Below are positions 3,234-57,220 of a stretch of 64,000 bases of DNA, in pieces (the first letter of the stretch is position 1; each line of letters opens with the position of its first letter). Under the pieces are notes generated by a model. The model was not told the DNA's origin and searched no databases. It saw only the letters and a program-made list of their open reading frames with translations. Source of the DNA: Verrucomicrobiia bacterium (GTDB lineage: Bacteria > Verrucomicrobiota > Verrucomicrobiia > Limisphaerales > UBA11358); NCBI GenBank assembly GCA_035945675.1, contig DASZAB010000050.1:5312-69311 (forward strand). The letters run 5' to 3'. The translations under genes and the position numbers were made by a program.

Positions 3234-4397
3234 GTGAAAGGCATTCCCCATGACAGATGGTTCGGCTGGTTAAGTCTCCTGATTGTGGCGGGTTACTTCG
3301 TGGTCGGCCTGTGGCCGTTTGATTTCCACCCTGCCAATCGCGTCAGTTGGCTGGCAGACCGTCCCGGGCTGGATTTTCAACCCTACGGAATTGCCTATGA
3401 CGCCGCGTCGCTGCCGCGGCCTGCGCCAAGTGACGGCGCCGGACCGTCCGCCGCCTTTACCGTAGAACTGTGGATCGAAACGGACCAGGAACCGGCCAAC
3501 AACGTGTTTAACATCCTGACCGTCCACAATCCCCAATTGCCGTTTGATTTTGTGCTTGGCCAATGGAAGCGGGATTTTTTGCTGCGGGCCACAACCCAGC
3601 ACCGGCCGCCAACAGCCAAAATTCCCGAGACAGGCGTGGACGAGGCGTTGACGGAAGGAAAGCCACAATGTTTCACCGTCCGCAGTGACGGAGCAGGAAC
3701 TGATTTTTATCTGGGTGGAACCATGGCCGGACATTTCCCTCAATTCGTCTTGAACGAGGAAGCGTTGGATGGACGGTTGATTCTCGGCAACAGCGCTTCG
3801 GGAAAACATCCATGGACCGGGCGACTGTTCGGATTCGCCCTCTACCACCGCGCACTGGCAGCGACGGAAATTGCCGGACATTCTGCGCTCTGGACGCAAG
3901 GCCGGGCCGGGCAGCTCACGAATGCTTCCGGGCTGACGGCGCTCTACCTGTTCGACGAAGGTCGTGGGCGGTCGGCGGCGGATTCTTCGGCCAACCACCA
4001 TCATGTCATCATTCCCGCGATCTTTGAACCGGTCCATCGGAATTTGTTGATACCGCCCTGGAGCGACCTGTCTTACCGCGAGCCGGATTATCCGGACATT
4101 GCTGTCAACATTCTTGGTTTCGTGCCGTTCGGATTCTGCTTTTTCCTCCATCGCCGCTCGCTCAAGCCGGTGCAAAAAATCACCAACTCTTTGCGGGTGG
4201 TTCTCAGCGGTGCGGCGGTCAGTCTGGCAATTGAAATCATCCAGGCCTGGCTGCCCGACCGGACATCCTCCGTGACCGACTTGTTAACGAATACCACCGG
4301 CACGCTGCTGGGCGTGGTCCTGGCCCTGGCGCTCCGACGCAACATCACAAAAGCCGAACCTGCAACGAGGCCCGGCGGGAGTAGCGCAGATTGGTAA
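3234..4397 (+). CDS. membrane protein with LamG/concanavalin-like central domain and VanZ-like C-terminal membrane domain
   Basis: 387-aa ORF. It has an N-terminal TM (WLSLLIVAGYFVVGLWPF) and a central LamG-like stretch (LILGNSASGKHPWTGRLFGFALYHRAL). The C-terminal VanZ-like helices are NILGFVPFGFCFFL and VTDLLTNTTGTLLGVVLALAL. Confidence 0.65.
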   Translation: MKGIPHDRWFGWLSLLIVAGYFVVGLWPFDFHPANRVSWLADRPGLDFQPYGIAYDAASLPRPAPSDGAGPSAAFTVELWIETDQEPANNVFNILTVHNPQLPFDFVLGQWKRDFLLRATTQHRPPTAKIPETGVDEALTEGKPQCFTVRSDGAGTDFYLGGTMAGHFPQFVLNEEALDGRLILGNSASGKHPWTGRLFGFALYHRALAATEIAGHSALWTQGRAGQLTNASGLTALYLFDEGRGRSAADSSANHHHVIIPAIFEPVHRNLLIPPWSDLSYREPDYPDIAVNILGFVPFGFCFFLHRRSLKPVQKITNSLRVVLSGAAVSLAIEIIQAWLPDRTSSVTDLLTNTTGTLLGVVLALALRRNITKAEPATRPGGSSADW

Positions 4398-4477
4398 TCT
4401 GCCGTTTCGCCGACTGAAAGTCGGCAGGCATTGCGGATTGCCAAGCCACGACACGGCAGACTGACAGTCTGCGCTAT
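4381..4477. repeat. REP-like element (GTAGC...GCTAC family, variant)
   Basis: Three short hairpins (GCAGAT-tggta-ATCTGC, GCCGAC-tgaaa-GTCGGC, GCAGAC-tgac-GTCTGC) are bracketed by GTAGCGCAGA...TCTGCGCTAT. The stop codon of the upstream gene (4395-4397) lies inside the element. Confidence 0.65.
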
Positions 4478-4873
4478 AGTGATTGGTCCGCATGAGCCGG
4501 TAATGCCCGCCACCGCCATGTCAGTGACGATTGCCACGCCACTCCGACATGCCAGCCGCGGCACGGACCCCACCCCACCGCCACCGCGGGCCGACGCCAG
4601 CCGCCTTTTAACAAGGTGCCGGGAACGTACCGGGACTTTCAGGTGGCCGCCGGAGCGGAATATCGGTTCTGCGCGGTCTTACGTTTGACGTGGAAGGCGG
4701 TTATTCCGTGGGGCACGAGATTGGTTACATGGACATTGACCAGGCCGTTTTGTTCGGCAGCGCCCCTTACTTCCAGGCGGCTTGAGATACCGGTTTTGAC
4801 GACCGGTAACCAGGCGGAGCGCGGACAGCCATGTTGCTTTGTAGAAATGATCGTCCGGCCTCAAGAGTTCATT

Positions 4874-4986
4874 TCCCGCTCCCCGCAGCGAAGCGCGGGG
4901 AGAGGGGCAGGGAGAGGGGCCGTTCAACAAAAAACCACCTCTCCCCGACCCTCTCCCCCAACTTCGTTGGCGGAGAGGGAGATAAG
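4874..4986. repeat. CTCTCCCC/GGGGAGAG palindromic element cluster
   Basis: CTCCCCGC...GCGGGGAG, GGGGCAGGGAGAGGGG...CCTCTCCCCGACCCTCTCCCCC and CTCTCC...GGAGAG inverted repeats. A related copy lies at 29240-29300. Confidence 0.6.
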
Positions 4987-5218
4987 ATGGAGGTGTCGTT
5001 TCCGGGTTTGATGTTTTCTACAAACCAACAGCCATGTCCGCGTGCATCCATCCTCTGCAGGTCGTCCAGCGCATTCATCAGCATCAACAGCCAATCCGCG
5101 GACTCTGCCGTCCGCGCCCCTTTTCCGTCGGGCAATATGTCTTCGAGTTGCATCGGCCGGCGGCCGGGAATTTGAAAATTCTTTCGCCGGGGGGATTTAA
5201 CCCTTAGCCTTCCGGCGG

Positions 5219-6091
5219 ATGCTTGAGCAAACCGTCCAGATTGTCTCTAACGAGCGCGATACCGACTCTTATTTTCGCCTTGTCCTGCGCGCGCCGCAAA
5301 TCGCGCCGCTCATCCAGCCCGGCCAATTTGCCCACGTCCGCGTGCAGCCGCTCAAAGATGCCCTGCTCCGCCGGCCGTTCAGCATCTTCCAGGTTTCCGG
5401 CGACACTTTTTCCATCCTCTATAAAACGGTCGGCAAAGGCACCGACGCGCTCGCCCGAATGGGTGCCGGCGAGGAATTGAGCGTGATTGCGCCGCTCGGC
5501 CACGGATTTACCGTGCCCCAACGCGGGGGCGAAACTCCCCTCCTCGTCGCCGGTGGCTATGGCATGGCGGCGATGTATCTGCTGGCCCAACGGTCGCCCC
5601 GGAAGGGCATCGTCTTCGTCGGCGGCCGGCGGCGTGTGGACATTTTGTGTGAAAAGGAATTTCAGGCGCTGGGCTGGGACGTACGGGTGACTACCGAGGA
5701 CGGCAGTCACGGCGAAAAGGGATTGGTTACGCAACCGTTGCTGGCGGAATTGCGCAGGAGCCGAGGCGACGAGGCTCAAACTAAAGAATCGGAAAGCGGA
5801 CGACGGAAATCGGAAATCAGCCAGAGCCTCCTGACGTCGGCTGCTACCCGCCAGAAGGTGAAGATTTACGCGTGTGGCCCGACACCAATGCTCAAGGCGG
5901 TTGGCAAAATCGCTAGGGATTCCAGTGTCCCGGCGGAACTTTCGATGGATGAACATATGTGTTGCGGCGTCGGCGTCTGCCTGACATGCGTGATTCCCAT
6001 CAAGACCGGTGACACCTGGGAATACCAGCGCACCTGCACCGAGGGACCGGTGTTTGACGCGCGTGACATCGTTTGGGAAGTGACAAAATGA
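5219..6091 (+). CDS. pyrK: dihydroorotate dehydrogenase (class 1B) electron-transfer subunit
   Basis: 290 aa. FAD/NAD-binding fold ([17 protein letters not shown]) and a C-terminal 2Fe-2S motif [11 protein letters not shown]...C. It lies directly upstream of pyrD. About 30 aa longer than typical PyrK (see findings). Confidence 0.9.
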   Translation: [290 protein letters not shown]

Positions 6092-6126
6092 TTTTTTGAA
6101 AATGGAACATCGAACATCCAACATTC

Positions 6127-6204
6127 AACATCCAACATCCAACGGCACCGACAGTAGCGTGGCATCTCTGGAGGTTCGGCGTTGGGCGTTGGATGTTGGA
6201 TGTT
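6127..6204. repeat. intercistronic low-complexity hairpin (AACATCC words)
   Basis: Perfect 18-nt inverted repeat: AACATCCAACATCCAACG (6127-6144) and CGTTGGATGTTGGATGTT (6187-6204). It sits between the pyrK stop (6091) and the pyrD start (6233). Confidence 0.8.
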
Positions 6205-6232
6205 TTCTTCCATCCCGCTTGGAAGCGCATTC

Positions 6233-7147
6233 ATGAATCTCTCCGTCCAAATCGGCAAACTAAAGCTGCGAAACCCAGTGATGGTCGCTTCCGGAACGTT
6301 TGGTTATGGCGTCGAATACGCCCAGCTCCTTGACTTGAACCAGCTCGGCGCGGTGGTGGTCAAAGGCATCCGGCTCGGCCCGGTCCGCGGCAACGCCACG
6401 CCGCGCACGGTCGAGGTGGCGAGCGGGCTTATCAACGCCATTGGCTTGCAGGGACCGGGCGTGGACGGGTTCATCAAGAAGTACTGGCCTTTTCTCAAAA
6501 CCCTGAAGGTTCCGACCATCATCAATATCTGGGGCACCACCGTCGAGGAATATGCCGAAGTCGCGGAAAGCTTCGACGCGCTCGGCGGCGTCGGCGCGCT
6601 GGAACTCAATGTCTCCTGCCCCAACATCAAGAAGGGCGGCGCGCAATTCGGTACCGACTTGAAATTGCTGGCACAAGTCGTTGCGGCCTGCCGCAAAGTG
6701 ACAAAGCTGCCGCTGATTACCAAGATGAGTCCGAACGTGGTGTGCCTCGCGCCTTTCGCTCAAGCGGCGGAGGACGCCGGCAGTGATGCGTTGTCCATCA
6801 TGAACAGTTACCCAGCCATGGCGATTGACATCGAGACACGCCGGCCGAAGCTGGCCAACGTGACCGGCGGCCTGACCGGGCCGTGCATCAAGCCGATTGC
6901 CATCAAGCTCGTCTGGGAGGCGGCGAAAGCCGTGAAAATTCCCATCATCGGCATGGGTGGCATTCAAAACGCGGCGGACGCAATTGAATTCATGGTGGCC
7001 GGCGCGACCGCGGTGGCGGTCGGCACGGCCAATTTCTACGAACCCCAGACGCCGTTGCAGGTGATTGCCGGCATCCGCGAGTTCATGGAAAAACACAATC
7101 TGAACAATGTGAAAGAAATAATCGGCAGTGTGGCAGTAGAAAGATAA
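6233..7147 (+). CDS. pyrD: dihydroorotate dehydrogenase catalytic subunit, class 1B
   Basis: ORF 6182-7147. The likely start is the ATG at 6233 (MNLSVQIGKLKLRNPVMVASGTFGYG). Active-site NVSCPN is present and the C-terminal FMN-binding motifs are intact. Confidence 0.9.
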   Translation: MNLSVQIGKLKLRNPVMVASGTFGYGVEYAQLLDLNQLGAVVVKGIRLGPVRGNATPRTVEVASGLINAIGLQGPGVDGFIKKYWPFLKTLKVPTIINIWGTTVEEYAEVAESFDALGGVGALELNVSCPNIKKGGAQFGTDLKLLAQVVAACRKVTKLPLITKMSPNVVCLAPFAQAAEDAGSDALSIMNSYPAMAIDIETRRPKLANVTGGLTGPCIKPIAIKLVWEAAKAVKIPIIGMGGIQNAADAIEFMVAGATAVAVGTANFYEPQTPLQVIAGIREFMEKHNLNNVKEIIGSVAVER

Positions 7148-7222
7148 TTTACGATTTGCGATATACGATTTGCGCGCCGCCTCCCGATTTCCGGTCACGC
7201 GTAAAGGGAGCTCTCTGATAAC

Positions 7223-7301
7223 GTAGCAGCGGACGGGAGTCCGATCACTTTTGATTCAAACGGCCAGGGAAAAGATGGAGCCGACTCACGTCGGCTGCTA
7301 C
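7223..7301. repeat. REP-like element GTAGCAGC...GCTGCTAC
   Basis: GTAGCAGCGGACGGGAGTCCG ... GCCGACTCACGTCGGCTGCTAC. It is nested between low-complexity arms ATATACGATTT (7161-7171) and AAATCGTATAT (7330-7340). Confidence 0.75.
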
Positions 7302-7352
7302 TAAATCGCAGATCGTGGCGTAAAATCGTAAATCGTATATTGTATATCGAAC

Positions 7353-7715
7353 ATGTTCGAGCATCGTTCAAAACCGCTGCTGCCGCGCAAGGAGTATTAC
7401 CGGCGCATTGCGCGCCACGCGGCGCTTGGTTTTTCGATCATCGTGGTTGCCCTCGGCATCGGCATGACCGGCTATCACGTTTTCGAAAAATTGCCGTGGG
7501 TTGACGCGTTCGTGAACGCGGCCATGATTCTTTCCGGCATGGGCCCGGTCGCCACCCTGCAAACCAATGCCGGAAAAATGTTCGCCGGCTGCTACGCGCT
7601 GTTCAGCGGCCTCGCCTTGATTGCCATCCTGGGCATCATCTTCGCACCCGTCGTCCACCGCTCGCTGCACAAATTTCATCTGGAGGATGAAGGCCGTCTT
7701 AAAAGGGACAAATAA
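7353..7715 (+). CDS. small 2-TM ion-channel-like membrane protein with non-canonical pore loop
   Basis: 120 aa with the layout TM1 - pore-helix-like segment - TM2. WVDAFVNAAMILSGMGPVATLQTNAGKMFAGCYALFSGLALIA resembles a KcsA-type pore, but the TVGYGD filter position reads LSGMGP. Confidence 0.55.
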   Translation: MFEHRSKPLLPRKEYYRRIARHAALGFSIIVVALGIGMTGYHVFEKLPWVDAFVNAAMILSGMGPVATLQTNAGKMFAGCYALFSGLALIAILGIIFAPVVHRSLHKFHLEDEGRLKRDK

Positions 7716-7762
7716 ACCTGAAACTGTTTTACGCTTCACTGCCAAATCGATATGCTGGATTC

Positions 7763-8620
7763 ATGCTGTGGGCCTTTACCAAATATCACGGGTTGGGCAA
7801 TGATTACATCATCATTGACCCGAAGAACCTGCCGTCACCGCTGACGGCCGCGCAGGTCAAGACGATTTGCCATCGCAATTACGGCATTGGTTCGGATGGC
7901 ATCCTGCTCGGTCCCCTGCCCTCCAAAATGGCGAAGTTTGCGGTTCGCATTTACAATCCCGACGGCAGCGAGGCGGAAAAGAGCGGCAACGGCCTGCGGA
8001 TTTTTTCGCGTTACCTGTGGGACAAGAAACTGGTCGGCAAGGACGAGTTCGCGGTCGAAACCGCCGGCGGGCTGGTGAGGGCCACGGTCACGGAACGCGG
8101 CAAGGTGGTGCGCGTGGAGATGGGCAAGGTCAGTTTCTGGAGCGACGAAATTCCCGTCGCCGGTCCGCGCCGCGAAGTCATCAACGAACCGATTCATCTG
8201 CGCGGCGAACGATTCAACTTCTGCGCGGCCACCGTGGGCAACCCGCATTGCGTGCTGCCGATGCCCAGGATCAGCCCGGAAATTGCGAAGCAGATGGGCC
8301 CGCTGCTGGAAACGCACCTGCGTTTCCCCAACCGCACCAATGTGCAATTCATGCGGGTGATGGACCGCAACAACATCCAGATTGAAATCTGGGAGCGCGG
8401 CGCCGGTTACACCCTGGCGAGCGGCAGCAGCAGCAGCGCCGCGGCGGCGGTGGCGCACCGGCTCGGCCTGTGCGATCGCGAGATTTCCGTGCACATGCCC
8501 GGCGGCATCATTGAAATCGAGATCGGCGAGGATTACGCAATCCGCATGACCGGCGCGGTGGCCAAAGTGGCCGACGGCGTCATCGCCAAAGAAATGTTCA
8601 CCTCGTCAATCGTGGGTTAA
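7763..8620 (+). CDS. dapF: diaminopimelate epimerase homologue (catalytic Cys positions both Ser)
   Basis: 285 aa. FTKYHGLGNDYIIID, YNPDGSEAEKSGNG, VGNPHCV and ERGAGYTLASGSSSS align colinearly with E. coli DapF as I recall it. Confidence 0.8.
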   Translation: MLWAFTKYHGLGNDYIIIDPKNLPSPLTAAQVKTICHRNYGIGSDGILLGPLPSKMAKFAVRIYNPDGSEAEKSGNGLRIFSRYLWDKKLVGKDEFAVETAGGLVRATVTERGKVVRVEMGKVSFWSDEIPVAGPRREVINEPIHLRGERFNFCAATVGNPHCVLPMPRISPEIAKQMGPLLETHLRFPNRTNVQFMRVMDRNNIQIEIWERGAGYTLASGSSSSAAAAVAHRLGLCDREISVHMPGGIIEIEIGEDYAIRMTGAVAKVADGVIAKEMFTSSIVG

Positions 8621-8766
8621 AAAAGCTAATTGGCAACGGCCGTGAGATGCCAGTGCAGCACCAGCAATAGCCTCCCTGATTTGCATGAGATGGCTTAAAT
8701 ACACCGAACTTGCAGGGCGATGTTCGGGCGTGCAGGAGTTAACTTCAAGAAACGCAGCAACTGTAT

Positions 8767-9441
8767 TCACCACCGGCGGACGCGATAGAAGCGCTGCGAA
8801 CTGTTAGTGGTGGGATCGGTAAGCGTGAGCAGGCCGCCGTTGCCGGCCGTCAATGGCAACGGTGTCCAATTTGCGTCGGAGAGCGAGTTCTTGTATTCCA
8901 ACTGATATACCCGCCCGCTCTGCGATGGCAGGAAAACGCTGAAGCCTTTGGCGGTCCAAGAAGGATTTGACAAAAAAGTTTGCGGGATTGGTTGGCCCTC
9001 TCCCGCAATCGCAAGAGCATAATCAAATCCTCCTGAAATTCCGACTACGTTGGTCAGACCCGACGGCACGTTCGTCGCTCCGGAACTGCTGTCGCCCCAA
9101 GCGACCACAGCCCACTGATCTGTCAAGGCGTAACTGTCATAATTTCCAGCGGCGATCGCCACCACATTGGAGAGTGTTGCTGGCACCGTTGTTGCGCCGT
9201 CGGCATTGTAGCCCCACGCTGCCACGGTTCCATTCGTGAGGCCGGAAGGAATATTTGTCTGGCCATAAGAATCATCCCCCCAAGTGAACAATTGTCCGTC
9301 GGCCCGCAGAGCCATGCTGTAATTGCCGCCACAAGCAATGGCGACAACATTCGTGAGACCTGCCGGCAGATTGAGTTGTAGATTGTAATTCGCGCCCCAC
9401 GTCACCAGGCTGCCGTCAGCTCGTAATGCCAAATTTAACAT
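8767..9441 (-). CDS. RCC1-repeat (beta-propeller blade) protein, probably 5'-truncated
   Basis: Degenerate repeats A(L/I)xxDGxxxxWGxNxxGQxxxPxGLTNVVAIA. There is no signal peptide or N-terminal domain, and the first residues already lie inside a repeat. The C-terminal domain ends RFYRVRRW. Confidence 0.55.
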   Translation of the reverse strand: MLNLALRADGSLVTWGANYNLQLNLPAGLTNVVAIACGGNYSMALRADGQLFTWGDDSYGQTNIPSGLTNGTVAAWGYNADGATTVPATLSNVVAIAAGNYDSYALTDQWAVVAWGDSSSGATNVPSGLTNVVGISGGFDYALAIAGEGQPIPQTFLSNPSWTAKGFSVFLPSQSGRVYQLEYKNSLSDANWTPLPLTAGNGGLLTLTDPTTNSSQRFYRVRRW

Positions 9442-9662
9442 TATAGTTAGCTGCGAATGGGGCGGTTTTCGCAGCCTATCTCCCGGATTTCGCAGCCTAT
9501 TATGGCAAGGGGGCTGTGGTTTGAGGCTGGAGACAGGGGAAAAAGCTGCCGCACATGCAGCGCTATTGGATGCTCCATTGGACCTCTACCCGCTCCGCTT
9601 TTCACTTGCGTGCAAGATAGCACCATTTTAAAGCCGGTTTCAAGCCAATTCCGGGTGCCCTT

Positions 9663-9865
9663 ATGCCCAATGCAACGACTTTTGGCCGTCCGGTGCGGGA
9701 GCGGTTGGTGCCCAATCCCAAGGCGCGGTTGCGGGAACAGTTCCGAGTGGTGGCGCACTTCAAGTTTTTGTCGTATCGGACGGAGGAGGCGTATTGGGAT
9801 TGGGTGGTGCGGTCCTCGGAACAAATTGGCGGTTGGCAGTTTGGCGATGGGGAAAATCAGAGCCG
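9663..9865 (+). pseudogene. truncated tyrosine recombinase (integron-integrase-like N-terminal SAM-like domain only)
   Basis: PNPKARLREQFRVVAHFKFLSYRTEEAYWDWVVR matches the N-terminal core-binding motif of IntI-like integrases (xRxRHYSxRTExAYxxWIxRF). The frame then degenerates and runs into a REP half-site (9862-9883). No catalytic domain is present. Confidence 0.5.
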
Positions 9866-10035
9866 GCTGACGCCGGCTGCTACCATAATTAAAGGATCGG
9901 CTTGGAGAACAAAGTTTTGACAGAAGGAACAGAATTCCCCGGCTTGGTGGTTAAATCCAAGCCCTCCTTCATCGTGACTTTCTTTCCCGAGGGGAAAGAA
10001 ACCGTATCAGGCCGGCTCGACGGAGCCGAATGATT

Positions 10036-11220
10036 TTAGTTCGCCGGCTGGAGCCGGGCGCGCAGGACGTGGATGAGGGCCTTGACGGTGAGTTCGATAA
10101 AGAGAAACGGCTTGGCGATGAAATCATTGCCGCCGGCCATCATGGAACTGGTGCGGCTGTCAAAGTCACTGAGCGCGGTGACAAAGACGACGGGAGTTTT
10201 TTTGTACTGCGGCATGGCGCGCAGCCTGGTGCAGAGTTCAAAACCGGTCATGCCGGGCATGTCCACGTCCAGGAAAACGAGGTCGAACCTTGTCTCCGTC
10301 AGTAAATTCAGGGCGGCGTTGGGGTCGGCGGTGCTGGTGGAAGGCAACTGCGCCTTTTCCAGGGCGTAAACCACGGCGCGTTGGGAAATCGGCTCGTCGT
10401 CCACCACGAGAATGTTGACGGCGGGCGGGTCCGGATTATCCGGCTTTTTGCCGCGTTCGAAGAGAAAGCCGAGAAAATCCACGGCCGCGGCCACGGTGCG
10501 CAGGGTGGAGGTATTGATGCTCTTTGGTTTTTCGTAAAGCTCCTTGAGCAGCGCCTCCACGGCGGCGGACATTTGCGAGACATAGATGAATCCAGCGAGG
10601 CCGGCGTTGCCGGCGAGCGCATGGGTACGGCGGTAAAGCTCGTGGATGTACTTGAGCTGATTGATTTCGTCATCCGCCTTGATGAGGCTCTGCAAATGGC
10701 TGCGCAACGCCGCCAGGGTGGCCGGTTCGCTTTCAATGAACGACGTCCGCAGTTCGTTCAGAAATTTTGTGTCCCCCTCGGTATCGGTGAAATTGGGCCG
10801 GGCGGAAGGGGTCGCGGTCGTCCGCACCGCGGGGCCGCGCGGGATGGAGCCGCTGTCGCCGATGGCCTGGCGGACGACGTCCAGCACGTCCTTGGGCGTG
10901 CAATTGGTCTTGGACAGGCATTTGCTGGCGCCTGCCTTCCAGGCTTCCTGGATCAGGTTGGTCAGGTAGGTGTTGGAAAAAACAATGATGGGCAATTTGG
11001 CAAAATCCGCCTCGCTGCGGACCCTTTTGATGAGATCAACCCCCGACATCTGGGGCAGAACGAGATCCAGGAGCATGATGTCGGGCTGAAACGTCCGCAT
11101 GGTTTTCAGGCCGCTTTCGCCGTCAAACGCCACCTCGGCCTGATAACCTTCGATTGCGAATTTATTCCGGTAGATGTTCGCAATGATTTGATCGTCTTCG
11201 ATGATGAGAACTTTTTTCAT
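10036..11220 (-). CDS. phosphorelay protein REC-Hpt-REC
   Basis: 394 aa. The N-terminal receiver is KKVLIIEDD...MLLDLVLPQMSG. The central Hpt-like helix bundle has YRRTHALAGNAGLAG. The C-terminal receiver is ILVVDDE...VFLDVDMPGMTG. The start overlaps the kinase stop (ATGA at 11217-11220). Confidence 0.85.
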   Translation of the reverse strand: MKKVLIIEDDQIIANIYRNKFAIEGYQAEVAFDGESGLKTMRTFQPDIMLLDLVLPQMSGVDLIKRVRSEADFAKLPIIVFSNTYLTNLIQEAWKAGASKCLSKTNCTPKDVLDVVRQAIGDSGSIPRGPAVRTTATPSARPNFTDTEGDTKFLNELRTSFIESEPATLAALRSHLQSLIKADDEINQLKYIHELYRRTHALAGNAGLAGFIYVSQMSAAVEALLKELYEKPKSINTSTLRTVAAAVDFLGFLFERGKKPDNPDPPAVNILVVDDEPISQRAVVYALEKAQLPSTSTADPNAALNLLTETRFDLVFLDVDMPGMTGFELCTRLRAMPQYKKTPVVFVTALSDFDSRTSSMMAGGNDFIAKPFLFIELTVKALIHVLRARLQPAN

Positions 11221-13664
11221 GAATGAACCGTGGTCGCCACCGTCCCGCTCAGGGCCGGATGCTTCACCAGGAAATCCTGGGTGCGTCTGAATTCGCGCCG
11301 GGCATCAGCGCACAGTTGTTGCGCGTTGGTCAACCGGCCGGCCTTGCCCTGCCGCTCCAATTCCCGTAACAACGGCACCAGGCGCCTCATGCCCAGGGTG
11401 GCGCTGGCGCCGGCGCAACTGTGCGCCACCTGGCGCACTTCCTCGGCTTTGTTCGCGTGAACCGCCGTTTCCAATTGCGCGAGCTGCCCGGTCGTCTGGG
11501 TGAAGTAAAGTTCCACCAGCTCGCGAAGGCTTTCCGCGTTCCCGCCGCCCAAATCCGACAGCCGATCCATTTCCACCGGCGGTTCTTCCGCCTCCGGCGG
11601 GTCCGCGACGGGCGGGAGCGCGGGTTGGGGGGAGGCCGACGAACCCATCTGCGAACTCCAGCGCTCAATAATGGCACGGACATCCTTCGGGCGGACGGGC
11701 TTGGCCAGGTAATCGTCCATGCCCGCAGCGATGCATTTCTCCCGGTCGCCCTGCATCGCCTGCGCCGTCATGGCCACGATGACAATGCGGGAGCTGTAAT
11801 TGGCCTTCCCGCCGGCTTTTTGAAACTCGCGAATCGCGCGGGCCGCTTCCAAGCCGTCCATTTCCGGCATCATCACGTCCATAAAAATCAAATCATAGGG
11901 CTTCCGGTCAAGCGCGTCGAGTGCTTCCCGCCCGTTGGCGGCCAGGTCCGGCTGGTAACCCAACTGCTGCAGAATGCGTACGGCAACCTTCTGATTGATG
12001 GCGTTGTCGTCGCACAATAATACGCGCAACGGCTGGCGGCTGGCAAAGGTTTCTTTTCCCTGAACCGGTGTCGACGTGGGCTGCGGCAACGGCGCAGCTT
12101 TGATGCCGGAAAAAGCGCGGGTGACGGTCTCAAAAAATTGCACTGGTTTGACGGGCTTGACGGTGAAAGCGACGCACGGGATGGGCGCCGTGGCGGGGGC
12201 TTCCAGGCGCGCACCGAGCGGCGTCAGCAATATCAGGGGCAGTGTCGTCGCATCCGGCAATTGATGGATTTCGGCGGCCAGAGTGAAACCATCCATGCCC
12301 GGCAACTGCGCGTCGAGAATCACCAGGTCAAACGAGTTGCCTCCGCGAAAGAAATTCATTGCCTGCTGCGCATCCCCGGCATCGCGGGGAATCATTCCCC
12401 AGCGGGTCGCCTGCTCGGCCAGCACCCGGCGGCAGGTGGCGTTGTCGTCCACAATCAACACCCGCCGACCCGCCAATTGATCCTGCAGTCCCGCCAGCGG
12501 GTGCGGGGCGGTTTGCGGTTGGACCAGAACATTGATGGTGAAGTGGAAGGTTGAGCCTTCACCCGCCACGCTCTCCGCCCACATTTTGCCGCCCATCAAT
12601 TCGACCAGTTGTTTGCTGATGGCCAGGCCTAGTCCCGTGCCGCCATAACGATGCGCCGTGGAGGGGTCAGCCTGGGTGAAGGGTTTGAACAAACGCGCCA
12701 GGCGGTCCGGCGGAATGCCAATCCCCGTGTCCCGCACGGAAAAATGGAGGTGCAACAGGGAGCGATTTTGTTTTTCCTCCGCCTTGGCTGAAAGCAATTT
12801 GATTTGCACCAGGATCTCGCCGGACTTGGTGAACTTGATACCATTGCTCAAAAGATTCACCAGGACCTGGCGCAGGCGCAAGGCGTCGCCTTCCACCAGG
12901 GAAACAATCTCGTCGTCCATCTGATAAACCAGGTCAAGATTCTTTTCGAATGCCTTCGCGGCCATCAAGTCCAGCGTTTCCTCCACGCACGCGCGCAGGT
13001 CGAACGGCCGCGAATCCAGTTCCAGTTTGCCGGCTTCAATTTTGGAGAAATCGAGGATGTCATTGATGATGGTGAGCAAAGCCTCGCTGCTCGCATGGAT
13101 CGTTTCCAGATAACCCCGCTGCTCGGCGGTCAACTGCGTTTCGAGCAGCAGACCCACCATCGCCACCACGCCGTTCATCGGCGTGCGGATTTCATGGCTC
13201 ATGGCCGCCAGAAAATCCGCTTTCGCGCGCGCGGCGGATTCGGCGGCGATCCGGGCGGACATCAACTCGCGCTGACGGTGGAGCAAGTCGCCAAATTGCC
13301 GCTTGATTTTCAACGCGGCGGAGAGGCGGGCACGGAGTTCGGTGACCTCAAACGGCCGGCTCACACAGTCGTGCGCGCCCAGTTCAAACGCACGGATCTT
13401 CTCCGCCGGTGCATCCGCGGCGGTGAACACAATGACGGGAACGGTTTGGGTCGCCGGGACCTCCTTGAGTTCCTGCAGCAATTCCATTTCCGCGACATCC
13501 AGCAGAATCAGTTCGGGAGGCTGGTCGCGAAGCAGTTCAAAGATCCCGTCACCGGACGGCGCCAGCCGGATGGCGATATCGTCCGCCCGCAGCAATTCGG
13601 ACAACGTCGCCAGCAATTCCGGATTGTTGCCAACCAGAAAAATTTGGGCTGCGGCTTGTCTCAT
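11217..13664 (-). CDS. hybrid histidine kinase: pseudo-receiver - HisKA - HATPase - REC - REC - Hpt
   Basis: 815 aa. H-box AAMSHEIRTPMNGV, G-boxes DTGIGI and GGTGLGLAIS. Two receivers (LIVDDNAT..VILDAQLPGMDG and LLCDDNAINQ..IFMDVMMPEMDG). C-terminal Hpt is HSCAGASATLGM. No TM or sensor domain is visible. Confidence 0.85.
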   Translation of the reverse strand: MRQAAAQIFLVGNNPELLATLSELLRADDIAIRLAPSGDGIFELLRDQPPELILLDVAEMELLQELKEVPATQTVPVIVFTAADAPAEKIRAFELGAHDCVSRPFEVTELRARLSAALKIKRQFGDLLHRQRELMSARIAAESAARAKADFLAAMSHEIRTPMNGVVAMVGLLLETQLTAEQRGYLETIHASSEALLTIINDILDFSKIEAGKLELDSRPFDLRACVEETLDLMAAKAFEKNLDLVYQMDDEIVSLVEGDALRLRQVLVNLLSNGIKFTKSGEILVQIKLLSAKAEEKQNRSLLHLHFSVRDTGIGIPPDRLARLFKPFTQADPSTAHRYGGTGLGLAISKQLVELMGGKMWAESVAGEGSTFHFTINVLVQPQTAPHPLAGLQDQLAGRRVLIVDDNATCRRVLAEQATRWGMIPRDAGDAQQAMNFFRGGNSFDLVILDAQLPGMDGFTLAAEIHQLPDATTLPLILLTPLGARLEAPATAPIPCVAFTVKPVKPVQFFETVTRAFSGIKAAPLPQPTSTPVQGKETFASRQPLRVLLCDDNAINQKVAVRILQQLGYQPDLAANGREALDALDRKPYDLIFMDVMMPEMDGLEAARAIREFQKAGGKANYSSRIVIVAMTAQAMQGDREKCIAAGMDDYLAKPVRPKDVRAIIERWSSQMGSSASPQPALPPVADPPEAEEPPVEMDRLSDLGGGNAESLRELVELYFTQTTGQLAQLETAVHANKAEEVRQVAHSCAGASATLGMRRLVPLLRELERQGKAGRLTNAQQLCADARREFRRTQDFLVKHPALSGTVATTVHS

Positions 13665-38776: not shown

Positions 38777-41623
<2,847 letters not shown>

Positions 41624-45500: not shown

Positions 45501-47969
45501 GTGCCGCAACGTTCCAGAACCTTGCCCCGGATGAACCTCCAATTTACCAAATTTGCCTCGCGCATCAGTCTGATTTACACGGCAGTGGGGGGCATCTGGA
45601 TATTGCTTTCCGGTCAGGTATTGTCCGCCCTGGTTTCCGATCCGGAAGTCCGTGACCAATGGGAAATCTTCAAGGGCTGGGCGTTCGTGGCGGTTACCGC
45701 GTTGCTGCTCTACACCTTGTTGCGCGGCCAATTGGGACGATGGGAGCATGAAGTGGCGGCGCGCAAACGCGCTGAAGAAGACTTGAAGGAAAGCAACCAG
45801 CGTTTGCAGCAGATCGCTTTGTCTCTGCATGAGGCCGTTTACCTGCGGGATGTAAAAACGCGGCAGATTTTATATGTCAATCCGGCTTTCGAAGAAACCT
45901 GCGGCATCAGTTGCGAAAGCTTCCTGAAGGATTCGGAGGTGTTTACGGAAATCGTCCATCCTGATGACAAACAACGCGTGTTGGAGAGCCGCCAGGAAGC
46001 CTTTTCCGCCGGTGAAACCCATGAGGTCGAGCACCGCATTATCCATCCGCACAAAAATATCCGATGGGTGCGTGGACAAATGTTTCCGGTCAAAAATGAA
46101 AAAGGCGAAATCTACCGTCTGGCCCGCACGCTGGAAGACATTACCGACCGAAAGCGGGCTGAAGAGGAGTTACGCAGGCTCAATCGCTCGCTCCAAACCC
46201 TCAGCAAATGCAACGAGGCACTGGTGCGGGCCACCGACGAAATGGAGTTGCTGACGAAAATTTGCCAAATCATAACGGAGATTGGCGGATTTCCTCTGGT
46301 CTGGGTGGGCTATTCGGAGCAGGACGAATCCAAATCCGTACGCCCCATCGCGTGGGCCGGGGCAAAAGCCCGTTATCTGGAAAATCTGCAAATCTCCTGG
46401 GCGGACACGGAACGCGGCTGCGGCCCGACCGGCGTGTCCATTCGTACCGGTCAACCAGCCACTTTCTCGAATCTGGCCGAGAACCCGAAGTTTGCGCCGT
46501 GGCGGGAGGAGGCTTTGCGTCATGGTTTCAGCTCCAGTATCGGCCTGCCGCTCAAGGCGGATGAAAAAATATTCGGGGCTCTGACGGTTTACTCCTCACA
46601 GGCGGATGCCTTCCACGCCAAGGAAACGGCACTGTTGGTGGAGCTCGCCGATGACCTGGCCTTCGGCATTGCCACTCTGCGAAACCGGGTTCAACGCAAG
46701 CACCTGGAGGAACAACTCCGACAGTCGCAAAAAATGGAAGCCGTGGGCCAGCTGGCAGGCGGCGTGGCGCATGATTTCAACAACATTCTCACCGTCATCC
46801 AGGGCAATGCTTCGCTGCTGTTGAATCCGCAGCTTGACCCCGCGGAGAGGTCCGGTTGTTCGCGCCAGATTGTTCAAGCCGCCGAACGGGCCGCCGGCCT
46901 GACCCGGCAGTTGCTCATTTTCAGCCGCAAGCAGGTCATGCGACCGGCCCACGTGGACTTGAACGAGGTGGTGGCCAACCTGACCAAAATGCTGCGGCGA
47001 ATTTTGGGTGAGGACATCGTGCTGCAAACCAACTATGCGCCCGAGCTGGCCCTCATTCACGCCGACGCCGGGATGATCGAACAGGTGCTTATGAATCTCC
47101 TGGTCAACGCGCGCGACGCGATGCCCGCCGGCGGGCAGTTGAGCATCAGCACCGCCAAGGAGAAATTCACCAAGGCGCAAGTGGAAAAAAATCCCGACGC
47201 GGTCGCCGGGACGCACGTGCGTCTCACCGTCAGAGATACCGGCTGCGGCATTCCCCGGGAAAATCTACCGCACATCTTTGAGCCGTTTTTCACCACCAAG
47301 GCCGTGGGCAAGGGCACGGGGCTGGGACTGGCCACCGTTTACAGCATTGTCCAGCAACATCACGGCTGGATCACGGCGTCGAGCGAAGTCAACCAGGGCA
47401 GCACCTTTAACATCTATTTCCCAGCCGTGGAAGGCAAGCGGGAGGAAACGGAGGCCGCCCTGGCCGCCGCCAAAATGCCCCACGGCACGGGCACCATTCT
47501 GGTGGTAGAAGATGAACTGGCGGTGCGGGTGCTGGTTTCCAATCTGCTCCAGCGCTGCGGTTACACCGTCCTGGCGGCGGAATCCGGTGTGGCCGCCATG
47601 AAAGTCTGGCAGGAACATCAGGACCGGATCCAACTTTTGCTGACTGATATCATCATGCCCGACGGCATGAACGGCTATGAACTGTCCCGACAATTGCAGG
47701 CCGCCCGACCCGGGCTCAAGGTCGTTTATACCAGCGGTTACAGCGGCGAGGTGGTTGGTAAAAGCCTCAATTTGGCTGACGGCGTGAATTTTCTCCAAAA
47801 ACCGTATCCGCCTCAAAAGCTCCTGCAAATCTTGCAGGACCATCTCGGTCATAACCAGGAAGGGCATTATCCGCCGGAAACACCTTCCCTTTTCGGGGGT
47901 GGCCAGAAGAAGAGCGCGAGCGCAGCCGCCGAAATCAAGGCCAACGTCAACGGCACCAGGAACAGGTGA
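45501..47969 (+). CDS. membrane hybrid sensor histidine kinase (2 TM - PAS - GAF - HisKA - HATPase - REC)
   Basis: 822 aa. The kinase core is nearly colinear with 38777-41623 ([31 protein letters not shown]). The receiver is ILVVEDE...[13 protein letters not shown]. The start could be the internal Met at 45531. Confidence 0.85.
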
Positions 47970-49177: not shown

Positions 49178-49524
49178 GAACGGGCACGAGTTTGCAAGCG
49201 GTTTCCCGGGGTGCAACAAAAAATTTACACGAATTTTTCTTGAGAAAATTCCGGATCAAAGCGATATTGGATCCGTCAGAAAGATGAATTGCTCTTTGAT
49301 TGAAACTTGAATTTACCCTGCCCTGTTCGTGATTAGGCAACTAATCCTTGAACCGTAATGATACGATCCCGGGACCCAAGCCGGGGCTGCGGCCGACACG
49401 CCTTCGCTGGAAGTCGAAAGCAGTCCAGCCCGTCCCACATGTTGCAAAACATGTTCAAAGGAACAGTTACACACGGCAAGGGCGGGGTTTTTATTTTATC
49501 GTCCAACCGCTTCACCTTCTGATT

Positions 49525-50124: not shown

Positions 50125-50591
50125 ACGCCGGCACACAATCGGCCGCTGGTGAGAATCTTTGCGCGCAAACCGCCACGGCCGTGGAGGGCAGCTTCGGCTC
50201 CCGGCGCAATGGCCTGGTTCATCCAGTGGCAAGGGCTGCACTCACTCACGCCTTCAAAGGCAACACCCTGCACTTCGAATTTCTTCCCGATCAGCCTGTT
50301 TAAATCCACACCGCAGGTGATGACATTGCGGCGCGTCACACCGGGCGATTTGTCACTCACCCCCAGGCGGCGGCAAAGGTCATCAAAAACCTCTTTCGCA
50401 AAGAAAGTAATCTGGCCCTGGTAATCGTTCTTGAAATTGAAAAAACGGTCGCCGGCCAGCCCCCGGCTGGCCACACATTCAACTTCGCGCACTTCGACCG
50501 CCGGCTGTTCCCCGGCCGGCCGGCCATGGTGGCCGAAAAAATTATGTCCCGGCGAAATGAACAGGCCGACGACTTGAATTTGTCCATTCAT
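50121..50591 (-). CDS. MOSC-domain protein
   Basis: 156 aa: GLAGDRF and ECSPCHWM are typical of the MOSC beta-barrel with conserved Cys. The start overlaps the nirA stop as ATGA (50588-50591). Confidence 0.75.
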   Translation of the reverse strand: MNGQIQVVGLFISPGHNFFGHHGRPAGEQPAVEVREVECVASRGLAGDRFFNFKNDYQGQITFFAKEVFDDLCRRLGVSDKSPGVTRRNVITCGVDLNRLIGKKFEVQGVAFEGVSECSPCHWMNQAIAPGAEAALHGRGGLRAKILTSGRLCAGV

Positions 50592-52378
50592 GTTTCCGCA
50601 CCAAACATCTCCTGTAAACGCCCGACGTCAAGCCGGCTCGTAAATTGTTGAAAGGTTTCCCTGCCCTGCCGGCGCCGGAGATAGGCGCGCAACATGCGTT
50701 CCACCGTGCGCGGCAATTCGGTCGCGGTGATGCCGGCAAAGACCTGGCGTCCGACGGCCTGGTTTCTGCCGAACCCGCCGCCGACGAACACATGATACCC
50801 GTCCACGCTCTCACCGCCGACTCTGGCTTTCACACCGAGACAGCCGATATCGCCCATGTAGTGTTGCGCGCAGGAATTCGGGCAGCCGGTCAGATGAATA
50901 TTCACCGGTTGGTCAAGCTCGAGCCGCTTCTCCAGATATATCGTCAGTTCCAACGCGTGGGCTTTGGTGTTCGATTGCGCATACTTGCAGTAACGATTGC
51001 CGGTGCAGGCAATGATGCCGCCGGCCGCGTTTGATTGTTTGGTGGCAAAACCAATTTTTTCAAGTGCCCGCTTGAGCGTGGGAACAAAGGCGTCCGGCAC
51101 ATTCGGGATGATGAAATTTTGCCAGACGGTGAGGCGGATCTCGCCGCTGCCGTAGCTGTCGGCCAGGTCGGCGACGCGCAGCATTTGCTTCGGCGTAATC
51201 TGGCCGGCGGGCAACGCGACGCCCACGTAATTCAATTCGCGTTGTTTCTGCGGAAAATCGCCAATGTGCGAATGCGGCAGTTCCTGGCTGGCCCAGCGCA
51301 TTCGGGCCGGATCGTAAGGTGCGCGACGGAGCGGTTTCCCCAGTTTCTTTTCCACTTCGGCGAGATATTCATCAAGTGACATCTTCTCCAGCAGATGCTT
51401 GAGCCGCGCCTTCTTGCGGTCGGTCCGGCAGCCGCGCTCGAGATAGACGCGCAGGATGGCAACGATGACCTTGTTGATTTCACCCGGAGGAACCACCACG
51501 CCCAGATCACGCGCAAACGTCTTGTGGCCCGTCGCACCGCCAAGGGCGATGCGGAAAACCACGCCACCCGGCAACGCATCGGGAGCGCCGGTCTCCGACC
51601 CGGCGCGTTCCGCAGGCGATTCGCGACGTGCCGGGTCGGAGACCGGCGCTCCCATCAATACAGCCTTCACGCCAATGTCGTTCGTGTCCTCGACCGAACC
51701 AATCAGCCCGCCGCCATCAAAGGCGATATTGAATTTGCGCGGCAGATCGTAGAACGAACGGTCATTGATGATGATTTGCGCCAGCTCATGGACGAAGGGC
51801 AGCACGTTAATGAGTTCAACCGGATCAATCCCCGCCGTGGGATTCGCGGTGAGATTGCGGATGTTGTCCGCCCCGGCGCCGCGTGCATGCAGGCCGACGC
51901 TTTGAATGCGGCGCAGGACTTCCGGCGCGTCCTTCGGCTGGATCAGGCGCATCTGAAAATTGGCCCGCGTGGTGATTTGCACATAACCGGTGGTAAGTGC
52001 CTGCGCAACGCGGGCCAGTTCGCGCAGTTGATGCGTGGTCACCACCCCGCCAGGAATCCGCAACCGCGCCATGAAGGCATCTTTGACCGGCGTGAGAAAA
52101 AACAAACCGTTCCATTTAAACCGAAAAATGTCTTCTTTGTCCGGCGCTTGGTTGTTGGCGGCATTCTCAACAATCTGCGAATACGCGTCCAGCGGATGCA
52201 ACTCACGCTTTACCCGTTCTTCCCAAATAAGATCCTCGTTTGTCGCGGCCGGGGCCGGTTCGACATCGCTGAATCGCTGTCCCCGGGCGGCGATGCCCGC
52301 AAACAAACCCGTGATATATTCCTTTTGCTCCGGCGTGAAACCGGTGCCGGCGGGCAGTTCGGGCAAAGCTGTGTTCAT
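50588..52378 (-). CDS. nirA: siroheme/4Fe-4S nitrite (sulfite)-reductase, NirA-like
   Basis: 596 aa with duplicated NiR/SiR ferredoxin-like halves. Cluster/siroheme Cys residues are CTGNRYCKYA and LTGCPNSCAQH. The nitrate-assimilation context favours nitrite reductase. Confidence 0.85.
   Translation of the reverse strand: MNTALPELPAGTGFTPEQKEYITGLFAGIAARGQRFSDVEPAPAATNEDLIWEERVKRELHPLDAYSQIVENAANNQAPDKEDIFRFKWNGLFFLTPVKDAFMARLRIPGGVVTTHQLRELARVAQALTTGYVQITTRANFQMRLIQPKDAPEVLRRIQSVGLHARGAGADNIRNLTANPTAGIDPVELINVLPFVHELAQIIINDRSFYDLPRKFNIAFDGGGLIGSVEDTNDIGVKAVLMGAPVSDPARRESPAERAGSETGAPDALPGGVVFRIALGGATGHKTFARDLGVVVPPGEINKVIVAILRVYLERGCRTDRKKARLKHLLEKMSLDEYLAEVEKKLGKPLRRAPYDPARMRWASQELPHSHIGDFPQKQRELNYVGVALPAGQITPKQMLRVADLADSYGSGEIRLTVWQNFIIPNVPDAFVPTLKRALEKIGFATKQSNAAGGIIACTGNRYCKYAQSNTKAHALELTIYLEKRLELDQPVNIHLTGCPNSCAQHYMGDIGCLGVKARVGGESVDGYHVFVGGGFGRNQAVGRQVFAGITATELPRTVERMLRAYLRRRQGRETFQQFTSRLDVGRLQEMFGAET
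51581..51653. repeat. perfect 24-bp inverted repeat element inside the nirA reading frame
   Basis: GGGAGCGCCGGTCTCCGACCCGGC (51581-51604) and its exact reverse complement GCCGGGTCGGAGACCGGCGCTCCC (51630-51653), separated by a 25-nt spacer. Confidence 0.9.
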
Positions 52379-52394
52379 ACCAATTGAAGCAATT

Positions 52395-53245
52395 AATCGG
52401 AGCTCCGAAGGAGCTTGGGCTGGTGGCCACGGGTGGAGTGCAACGGAACCCGTGGAAATAGAAGAGAATACAAATCTTCCGTCCCGAAGGGGCGACAGAC
52501 TAAACTCATCTCATGCCCGGAACCTACCATAATCTCAAATTCCACCTCATTTTCAGCACGAAACATCGTGAACCGTGGCTGAAGAACGATATCCGTCCAC
52601 GAATTCACGATTATCTGGGAGGAATCATCCGCGGAGAAAAAGGGGTGTTGCTTGAAATTGGCGGCGTCGCCGACCACGTTCATATCCTGTTTGGGTGGCG
52701 GACCGATGAGAGCATCGCCACCCTGGTCCGGAATCTGAAGGCAAATTCGTCGCGCTGGATCCATGAAACGTTTCCGGCGCTGCGTGATTTTGCGTGGCAG
52801 GAGGGTTATGGCATTTTTTCCGTCAGTCAATCGCAGGTTCCGGTGGTACAAAATTACATCCAACGGCAGGAGCAACATCATCAGATAAAAACGTTCCGCG
52901 AAGAATTGTTGGCCTTTCTCCGGACGCACAACATCGAATTTGAAGAGAAATACGTTTTTGACTAGTGAGCAATCAAGCTCCGCAAGAGCGTCAGCCGGGA
53001 GCCATGGGTGAAACGCTGCGCTACCCGTGGGTTCGAACGCCAAACAATTATTCCGCCCCATTGTGGCGGAGGATTCCTGCACCCCGTTGGGGCGCAAATG
53101 ATTCTCCCTCCCTGCTCTCCACGGGTTTTCACCCGTGGCCACCGGCCGCCGCTCCTTTCGAGCCGAACAATCCGCACGCATCCTGAACGGATGCAGGCCG
53201 GTGGCCACAGGTGGAGCGGAACGCAACCCGTGGAACCCGTGGACG
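52395..53245. mobile_element. RAYT-like unit: Y1 transposase gene flanked by arrays of CCAYGGGT-N-ACCCGTGG hairpins
   Basis: Hairpins at 52427-52455, 53002-53030, 53119-53138 and 53205-53232. Segments of about 38 nt at 52421-52458 and 53199-53236 are direct near-copies (GGTGGCCACgGGTGGAG...AACCCGTGGAA). No tnpB is present. Confidence 0.7.
52513..52965 (+). CDS. IS200/IS605-family Y1 (HUH) transposase, REP-associated (RAYT-like)
   Basis: 150 aa: YHNLKFHLIFSTKHR, HUH motif DHVHIL and catalytic-Tyr region WQEGYG. Confidence 0.85.
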   Translation: MPGTYHNLKFHLIFSTKHREPWLKNDIRPRIHDYLGGIIRGEKGVLLEIGGVADHVHILFGWRTDESIATLVRNLKANSSRWIHETFPALRDFAWQEGYGIFSVSQSQVPVVQNYIQRQEQHHQIKTFREELLAFLRTHNIEFEEKYVFD

Positions 53246-53299
53246 AAGAAACTTCCCCATTCATTTTTACGCCTTAACGGGAGGTGGGATTTTTTTTGT

Positions 53300-57214: not shown

Positions 57215-57220
57215 GGCTTC

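Follow-up and report, generated by a model that had tools for sequence, protein, structure and literature searches.

The Ser/Ser gene and its protein

The stretch of DNA analyzed here (hereafter the window) comprises 64,000 nucleotides of contig DASZAB010000050.1 from a Verrucomicrobiia bacterium of the order Limisphaerales. At 7763–8620 on its forward strand lies a 285-codon gene of the DapF family, whose canonical members epimerize diaminopimelate (DAP), and its product carries serine at both positions held by the catalytic cysteines. DapF is the textbook cofactor-independent two-thiol epimerase and an antibiotic target, the best inhibitors of which alkylate these cysteines. The diagnostic motifs of the window protein read YNPDGSEAEK-S-GNGLRIF, ERGAGYTLA-S-GSSSSAAAAV, HGLGNDY, and GNPHCV; Ser74 (codon AGC, 7982–7984, forward strand) stands at the position of Cys73, and Ser220 (codon AGC, 8420–8422, forward strand) at that of Cys217, in Escherichia coli numbering. 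An initial annotation of the same sequence had given these motifs, coordinates, and codons, which proved exact on re-reading. Its assignment of serine to both catalytic positions is likewise borne out by alignment to the sequences of DapF crystal structures and by structure prediction. In HMMER alignments with the Anabaena (9MRO), Pseudomonas aeruginosa (8QZY), and Arabidopsis (3EJX) enzymes, the two serines face both catalytic cysteines with no gap nearby, and a MAFFT alignment with E. coli (4IJZ) and A. baumannii (5HA4) DapF equates Ser74 with Cys73 and Ser220 with Cys217. The thiol–thiolate pair of the two-thiol epimerases is therefore absent. A third cysteine-to-serine change, also reported by the initial annotation from the second motif, is real (Ser225 for E. 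coli C222) and is confined to the lineage of the window gene; cysteine is retained there in 49 of 73 diverse members of the clade described below.

Family membership is otherwise unambiguous. The protein matches PF01678 with 198 bits (cut-off 34.7; E 4e-59) as two domains, one in each half, and the NCBIfam DapF equivalog TIGR00652 with 242.4 bits against a cut-off of 114.65 over residues 4–275. An AlphaFold2 model, built with 73 homologues as input, has a predicted local distance difference test score (pLDDT) of 96.6 and a predicted template modeling score (pTM) of 0.92. It displays the DapF fold, with two similar α/β domains and the active site between them, and superimposes in Foldseek on the DapF structures 8QZY, 9MRO, 5HA4, and 4IJZ with template modeling (TM) scores of 0.87–0.91. 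Ser74 and Ser220 sit at the N-termini of helices 75–87 and 221–233, as the cysteines do in DapF. Two related families were considered and rejected. The window protein has no match at E ≤ 0.01 to the proline racemase profile PF05544, and its likeness to the proline racemases and 3-hydroxyproline dehydratases is one of fold only (TM about 0.7, 13–16% identity); PhzF/YddE membership fails similarly, as profile PF02567 finds no match and the resemblance is one of fold (TM about 0.7, 12–17% identity).

A large and old clade

The initial annotation treated the gene as a single oddity; it is in fact one member of a very large, old, and conserved clade. A HMMER scan of 1.84 billion cluster representatives at 50% identity returned 2,223 clusters at E ≤ 1e-30. 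Serine occupies both positions in 124 of the best 150 representatives, reaching down to about 40% identity, and four of the 150 are Cys/Cys, at 37–38% identity. The closest canonical representative (P0250) lies on a contig that also carries genes for SpoVS and RNase Y, which is not a verrucomicrobial context. In a rough neighbor-joining tree the Ser/Ser sequences form one clade apart from nine canonical enzymes. A genome scan with clade-specific peptide patterns gave at least 600 matches; among the 75 loci that could be parsed of the best 80, 72 are Ser/Ser and three Ser/Asn. Members of the branch occur in Verrucomicrobiota, Planctomycetota, Firmicutes, cyanobacteria, Spirochaetes, and other groups. 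Hosts among the listed matches include Sporomusa, Desulfosporosinus hippei, Hungatella, Lacrimispora, Blautia, Dorea, and Faecalicatena, and also Halanaerobiales, Spirochaetes, Bacteroidota, Pirellulales, Sedimentisphaerales, Nitrospira, Desulfobacteraceae, Ktedonobacter, Okeania, Nostoc, and the endosymbiont Candidatus Bandiella. This large monophyletic DapF clade, with both catalytic cysteines replaced by serine, is apparently undescribed: no account of a natural Ser/Ser DapF clade was found in a search of full texts, the coverage of which leaves out most subscription journals, and no structure of a natural member has been solved, the only serine-containing DapF entries being the engineered mutants 2Q9H and 2Q9J.

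Conservation of the two serines argues strongly against an artifact. All 120 of the closest readable database proteins are Ser/Ser, as are all 80 related loci in species-representative genomes, which disposes of an error in the serine codons, one of the outcomes that would have undone the initial annotation. Its view that the gene is not decayed holds as well: the reading frame is intact, and the ratio of nonsynonymous to synonymous substitution rates (dN/dS) between the window gene and 13 orthologues is 0.06–0.20, the mark of strong purifying selection. The first serine codon is AGY in every one of 84 loci, and the second is AGC, AGT, TCG, TCC, or TCA. Because a switch between the AGY and TCN families requires two substitutions, and both are in use at position 220, serine has long been selected there. 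A sequencing or assembly error is thus rejected on the strength of identical serine pairs in hundreds of independent assemblies, and a decaying pseudogene on the intact frame, the low dN/dS, and the two codon families; taken together, the chance that the pair is an artifact of either kind is negligible.

The DAP pocket and a clade-specific signature

Residue statistics compare 73 diverse Ser/Ser members (mean column identity 38%) with nine canonical sequences. Residues invariant in all 73 include N13, N65, D67-G68, S74-G75-N76-G77, N193, E211-R212, and S220-G221, and N160-P161-H162 is nearly so. Among the 73 members, N13, N65, G75-N76, N160, N193, E211-R212, and G221-S222 are invariant or nearly invariant and match the canonical sequences; they correspond to what we take to be the DAP-binding residues of DapF, namely Asn11, Asn64, Gly74-Asn75, Asn157, Asn190, Glu208-Arg209, and Gly218-Ser219 in Haemophilus influenzae/E. 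coli numbering. The Glu211-Arg212 pair (8393–8398, forward strand), equivalent to the Glu208-Arg209 that recognizes the distal DAP stereocenter, is invariant in the clade and in the canonical enzymes alike. The DAP contacts named in work on Anabaena DapF are Gln44/Gly47, Glu208, and the arginine at the distal center (PMC12039745). Position 46 is glycine in the Ser/Ser clade, and the Anabaena and plant enzymes likewise have glycine for Gln44.

Around this shared pocket the clade has residues of its own, all encoded on the forward strand. Immediately before Ser74 stands a basic residue, Lys73 in the window protein (7979–7981), which is lysine or arginine in 62 of 73 members (85%; K 54, R 8, with M/I/L in 9) and in none of the nine canonical enzymes, which have glutamine or methionine. 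Lys73 may have a catalytic role; that it forms a Schiff base with pyridoxal phosphate (PLP) was considered and set aside, as the position varies. Ile80 (8000–8002) replaces canonical Cys79, turning GNGxRCF into GNGLRIF (Ile in 70 of 73; Cys in seven of nine canonical sequences). Two positions past the DAP-binding Asn193 comes Gln195 (8345–8347; Gln in 68 of 73), where canonical enzymes have Gly or Glu (position 192). Tyr216 (8408–8410), four positions ahead of Ser220, is enriched in the clade (57 of 73, 78%; canonical E/A/I/Q), and in the first turn of the helix that follows Ser220, Ser223 (8429–8431; Ser in 68 of 73) takes the place of Gly220, present in all nine canonical sequences.

Operons, fusions, and other contexts

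At the DapF step of DAP, lysine, and peptidoglycan synthesis, gene associations are found for clade members and for verrucomicrobial orthologues, not in the window itself. Some Ser/Ser proteins are fused to LysA, the LysA part scoring above the TIGR01048 cut-off, and one is fused to a meso-DAP-adding MurE, above the NF001126 cut-off; two members are fused to domains of the alanine racemase (Alr) family. In locus L170 lysA directly follows the Ser/Ser dapF. A verrucomicrobial locus (L232) has the order dapF(Ser/Ser)-dapA-dapB, and the chromosome of a Candidatus Bandiella sp. (L209; OZ245923.1, 4927–11515) carries a dapB-dapA-dapF(Ser/Ser) cassette completed by an LL-DAP-aminotransferase-like (dapL-like) gene. 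IS3 and IS4 transposases flank the Bandiella cassette on both sides, in an endosymbiont genome of 1.29 Mb, an arrangement which suggests that the whole DAP module was acquired horizontally. dapA adjoins the Ser/Ser gene in six further loci, among them L068, L069, L076, L230, and L245, and in Hungatella and Lacrimispora the order is ddl-dapF(Ser/Ser).

Other settings are of a different character. Loci L165 (8001–17470) and L162 (1–18211) contain putative clusters for the uptake and breakdown of peptides containing D-amino acids, of the murein type. Their genes encode an Opp-type transporter, an Alr-DapF(Ser/Ser) fusion, a second Alr, M20 and M55 (DppA-type) peptidases, S66 (LD-carboxypeptidase), C26, a LysA-like protein, and M19; in L162 a LysA-DapF(Ser/Ser) fusion occurs alongside an NlpC/P60-SH3 protein. 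Such clusters look like murein-peptide utilization clusters. In the Pseudomonas syringae group (L168/L169), a nine-gene cluster at 4048–10375, beside a LuxR-type regulator, includes genes for a ferredoxin-like protein, a heme-oxygenase-like oxidase, a 2-oxoglutarate (2OG)-Fe oxygenase, ThiF, an aminotransferase, a semialdehyde dehydrogenase, and a GNAT protein, and may represent an uncharacterized pathway to an amino-acid-derived natural product.

Replacement of canonical dapF in Verrucomicrobiota

The initial annotation had proposed surveying the phylum for serine versus cysteine. As a proxy for a search for canonical dapF, genomes were scanned with a verrucomicrobial DapA, yielding 80 dapA loci spread over the phylum. 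Of these, 33 have a canonical Cys/Cys dapF upstream, in most cases as the immediate neighbor of dapA; their hosts include Chthoniobacter, Methylacidiphilales, Udaeobacter, Prosthecobacter, a Pedosphaera metagenome-assembled genome (MAG), and some Limisphaerales. The same slot is taken by a Ser/Ser gene in three loci (L251, L276, L289), and in two others a Ser/Ser gene lies further upstream (L267 and L269, by 0.7 and 5.3 kb). The gene after dapA is dapB in each of the 14 loci inspected one by one and in 60 of the 80 overall. In a DapA tree, lineages with Ser/Ser in the slot are sisters of lineages with Cys/Cys (L276 with L305, L289 with L282), and the lineage of the window falls in a clade made up only of Ser/Ser-bearing or empty-slot loci.

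Eight MAGs appear both in the Ser/Ser lists and in the dapA list, and all have dapA-dapB. In six of them no dapF of either type occurs within 10 kb of dapA-dapB and the Ser/Ser gene is at a pyrD locus, as it is in the window; one of these, CAVPSH01, encodes a Ser/Ser protein 94% identical to that of the window. In the other two, Ser/Ser fills the dapA slot. Cys/Cys is thus found at the slot in none of the eight shared MAGs as against 33 of the 72 other loci, a difference with a hypergeometric probability of ~0.011, calculated by hand and ignoring phylogeny. A manual comparison of record names found no assembly among both the Cys/Cys loci and the Ser/Ser lists. Proteins of the Ser/Ser type in the slot are 66–70% identical to the window protein, to which canonical verrucomicrobial DapFs are only about 29–34% identical; the slot therefore changed hands through gene displacement by a clade member, and not through local point mutation.

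Surroundings of the gene in the window

In the window the Ser/Ser gene follows three genes on the same strand: one for a pyrK-like electron-transfer subunit of PyrD (5219–6091; PF10418, PF00175); pyrD, encoding a class 1B dihydroorotate dehydrogenase (6182–7147; PF01180, 1e-75), an upstream neighbor conserved in many loci; and, 47 bp upstream, one for a small predicted membrane protein of 120 residues with no Pfam match (7353–7715). Some 45 of the 80 related loci have the gene for the 120-residue protein directly upstream, and the order pyrK-pyrD-membrane protein-dapF(Ser/Ser) is kept in dozens of Limisphaerales MAGs, which marks the gene as part of a stable core. Locus L066 has a different gene of the DHO_dh family in place of pyrK/pyrD upstream of the Ser/Ser dapF (388 residues, 4795–5961), probably a class 2 PyrD, and nine loci (L030, L036, L040, L045–L047, L056, L058, and L060) show a 24–28% PyrD match upstream. 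The pyrD-dapF neighborhood may accordingly persist across two nonorthologous PyrD types.

The window contains a single DapF-like gene, and tblastn with LysA, Alr, M20, and S66 seeds found no other DAP-pathway gene in it. No lysine riboswitch was found in the window or upstream of the Ser/Ser genes in 11 mostly Firmicute loci, and promoter and terminator sites around the gene are no commoner than in shuffled sequence. The window alone says little about the function of the gene.

Downstream lie genes for two-component proteins and for a 2-oxoacid dehydrogenase complex. The 1.4 kb from 8620 up to a response-regulator gene at 10036 include an open reading frame of 224 residues with RCC1 repeats (PF13540) at 8767–9441 on the reverse strand, which has no clear N-terminal part; there is no other convincing gene in this stretch, which may be a gene fragment. 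Hybrid histidine kinases and multireceiver response regulators are dense at 10036–13664 (reverse), 38777–41623 (forward), and 45501–47969 (forward), and the two-component proteins of the window include one of 394 residues that combines two receiver domains with an Hpt domain, as well as a kinase of 815 residues in which an Hpt domain accompanies three receiver stretches. A 6S (SsrS) RNA gene occupies 49312–49492 on the forward strand (Rfam RF00013, 68.8 bits against a gathering score of 46.4). At 50588–59975 on the reverse strand lies a nitrate-assimilation-like cluster, in which a ferredoxin-type nitrite/sulfite reductase (50588–52378), a 1304-residue protein fusing a molybdopterin nitrate-reductase-type module to flavodoxin, FAD, and NAD(P) reductase domains (53300–57214), a 487-residue protein with no Pfam match (57221–58684), and an MFS transporter (58728–59975) are all encoded on that strand.

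Function of the Ser/Ser proteins

Judged from sequence and genome context, the window gene probably encodes the organism's DAP epimerase, interconverting LL-DAP and meso-DAP for lysine and peptidoglycan synthesis, as a member of the Ser/Ser clade. The case for a role at the DapF step is cumulative, resting on the invariant DAP pocket and serines, purifying selection, the LysA and MurE fusions, the DAP operons, and the replacement in the dapA slot. Such an enzyme would follow the two-base scheme of one acid and one base at the DAP α-carbon, with a serine hydroxyl and a serine alkoxide in place of thiol and thiolate. Compared with a thiolate, a serine alkoxide is the stronger base but forms less readily. 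The two helix dipoles and the residues K/R73, Y216, Q195, and S223 are candidates for helping to form and position it. Having no thiol, the enzyme would resist inactivation by disulfide formation or thiol-reactive compounds. Oxidation resistance is doubtful as the sole driver of the change, as several hosts of the clade, namely Sporomusa, Desulfosporosinus, Sedimentisphaerales, and Lachnospiraceae, are presumably strict anaerobes.

A number of observations weigh against this assignment. In both DapF and glutamate racemase, exchange of a single catalytic cysteine for serine is reported to abolish most of the activity. Such mutants "hinder catalysis" according to PMC12039745 and PMC11602996. Nostoc sp. 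FACHB-892 has a Ser/Ser copy (L073) together with a canonical DapF (L152) that is 84% identical to the characterized Anabaena enzyme (9MRO), a proven Cys75/Cys224 epimerase (PMC12039745), and a Sporomusa MAG labels its Ser/Ser copy "dapF 1"; the Ser/Ser protein is therefore not always the sole DapF homologue of its host. Deletion of E. coli dapF causes no growth defect (bioRxiv 10.1101/2024.10.14.618325), so that position in an operon is no proof of high activity, and weak activity from another source could suffice. The organism may also encode a canonical dapF, a meso-DAP dehydrogenase, or an Alr-like DapF2 outside the window. The window gene itself has pyrK, pyrD, and a small membrane protein gene for neighbors, not DAP genes. 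Elsewhere the Ser/Ser gene sits in peptide-uptake and peptidase clusters, where the need for an LL/meso epimerase is not obvious, or, in P. syringae, in a cluster resembling those of secondary metabolism. Finally, the serines are not universal: rare Thr/Cys, Ser/Cys, Cys/Ser, Ser/Thr, and Ala/Ser forms nest inside the Ser/Ser clade in the neighbor-joining tree, and the Ser/Asn members (L217, L219, and L238, from Lachnospiraceae and Faecalicatena) may mark a further functional shift.

Several of these points would also be explained if the Ser/Ser proteins were neofunctionalized DapF paralogues. Their ligand would still be DAP or a molecule much like it, such as lanthionine, a hydroxy- or N-acyl-DAP, or a peptide that contains DAP, but they would catalyze another or a one-directional reaction, with epimerization left to a different enzyme elsewhere in the genome. 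Both DapF types do coexist in Nostoc sp. FACHB-892; the P. syringae copy is embedded among the oxidase, oxygenase, ThiF, and other genes of its nine-gene cluster; other members cluster with Opp-type transporters, an NlpC/P60-SH3 protein, and S66, M55, M20, and M19 peptidases; Ser/Asn and other mixed forms occur; and the proline racemase superfamily supplies a precedent in which replacement of one cysteine gave the 3-hydroxyproline dehydratases (TM about 0.73). However, the residues that read both ends of DAP are invariant, so that DAP itself is very probably what is bound, operons and fusions put the gene at the DapF step, with a DapL-like aminotransferase before it and LysA or MurE after it, and in Verrucomicrobiota the Ser/Ser gene replaces canonical dapF in its operon slot instead of being added to it. 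We accordingly regard neofunctionalization as a less likely explanation. The specific form raised by the initial annotation, a dehydratase, found no direct support, given the retained DAP pocket, the missing PF05544 match, and the partnership with dapA, dapB, lysA, murE, and dapL-like genes; it may still be conceivable for sub-branches such as the P. syringae copy.

A DAP-binding pseudoenzyme, serving as a sensor, as a chaperone or substrate-delivery partner of LysA, MurE, or Alr-type enzymes, or as an RppH-type regulator, would account for an intact binding pocket in which both acid/base residues have been replaced. Fusions to DAP-using enzymes and to Alr-family racemases would fit such a partner, the more so as the Alr-like DapF2 is a proven DAP epimerase in Staphylococcus, and E. 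coli DapF has a noncatalytic role in a complex with RppH (PDB 6D13). Against this stands the invariance of both serines over a divergence so deep that mean column identity is 38%. Pseudoenzymes usually let their former catalytic positions drift. The coevolved active-site signature of K/R73, Q195, Y216, and S223 also speaks against loss of catalysis, and the replacement of dapF in dapF-dapA-dapB would require another epimerase, none of which was seen; a dead enzyme is, on this evidence, quite improbable.

Returning to DAP epimerization by the Ser/Ser proteins, the initial annotation had listed a Ser/Ser epimerase beside a neofunctionalized enzyme and a second canonical dapF elsewhere in the genome. 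Of these three the first is the best backed by genome context, with Ser/Ser chemistry as the proposed mechanism. The third is true of Nostoc sp. FACHB-892, but in verrucomicrobial MAGs with close orthologues of the window gene no canonical dapF fills the conserved slot beside dapA-dapB. The wider proposition is evenly poised: that these proteins are widespread natural cofactor-independent epimerases, in which two serine hydroxyls would move the DAP α-proton at physiologically sufficient rates, and that, jointly with this, they have repeatedly displaced the thiol enzyme in DAP operons by horizontal gene transfer.

Implications

If Ser/Ser proteins are indeed DAP epimerases, the view of an obligatory thiol/thiolate pair in the DapF enzyme class would be overturned, and there would exist a DapF that is not inactivated by oxidation or by thiol-alkylating inhibitors of the aziridino-DAP type. 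Thiol-directed DapF inhibitors would not be expected to act on Ser/Ser proteins, and a thiol-free epimerase would be attractive for biocatalysis. Meanwhile, annotation pipelines (TIGR00652, PGAP, and those of the GapMind type) name Ser/Ser proteins DapF without evidence. The question reaches beyond a niche, as soil Verrucomicrobiota, Planctomycetota, cyanobacteria, gut Lachnospiraceae, and an endosymbiont all have members of the clade.

Comparison with known systems

Among the systems that invite comparison is DapF2, an Alr2-like, PLP-dependent DAP epimerase proven in Staphylococcus (PMC9026213; bioRxiv 10.1101/2024.10.14.618325). It is likewise a route through the DapF step that is independent of a thiol pair, but it has an unrelated fold of the alanine racemase family, of which the window protein contains no domain; the "DapF2" of the literature was accordingly rejected as a Ser/Ser DapF. 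The chlamydial bifunctional DapF/glutamate racemase (NF038284; PMC5885031) is also a DapF homologue with nonstandard properties from the Planctomycetes–Verrucomicrobia–Chlamydiae (PVC) superphylum; membership of the window protein in that family was rejected, as it scores 66.7 bits against a cut-off of 350. The proline racemase superfamily, with its Cys/Cys 4-hydroxyproline epimerases and its trans-3-hydroxy-L-proline dehydratases, in which one cysteine has become threonine, shares the superfold and offers a precedent for a hydroxyl residue replacing a catalytic cysteine with a change of reaction. Its members are 12–16% identical to the window protein (TM about 0.7), which does not match PF05544, and whereas the 3-hydroxyproline dehydratases keep one cysteine, the window protein has serine at both positions together with a DAP pocket.

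The C73S and C217S variants of H. influenzae DapF (PDB 2Q9H, 2Q9J) have serine at one catalytic position and superimpose on the model with TM scores of 0.82–0.86 (Foldseek). These are single mutants made in the laboratory, impaired in catalysis. The window protein, by contrast, has serine naturally at both positions, along with strong purifying selection and clade-specific residues that are viewed as compensating. Another comparison is with canonical DapF itself (EC 5.1.1.7; TIGR00652, PF01678), as represented by the E. coli (4IJZ), H. influenzae (1GQZ/2GKE), and Anabaena (9MRO) enzymes. The window protein has the same two-domain pseudosymmetric fold, equal length, 35–37% identity, and the same DAP-binding residues, and members of its clade share the operon positions of canonical DapF, next to dapA, dapB, lysA, and murE. 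Unlike canonical DapF, the Ser/Ser proteins have serine for both catalytic cysteines, isoleucine for Cys79, serine for Gly220, a basic residue before the first serine, and glutamine after Asn193, and they form a monophyletic clade of their own.

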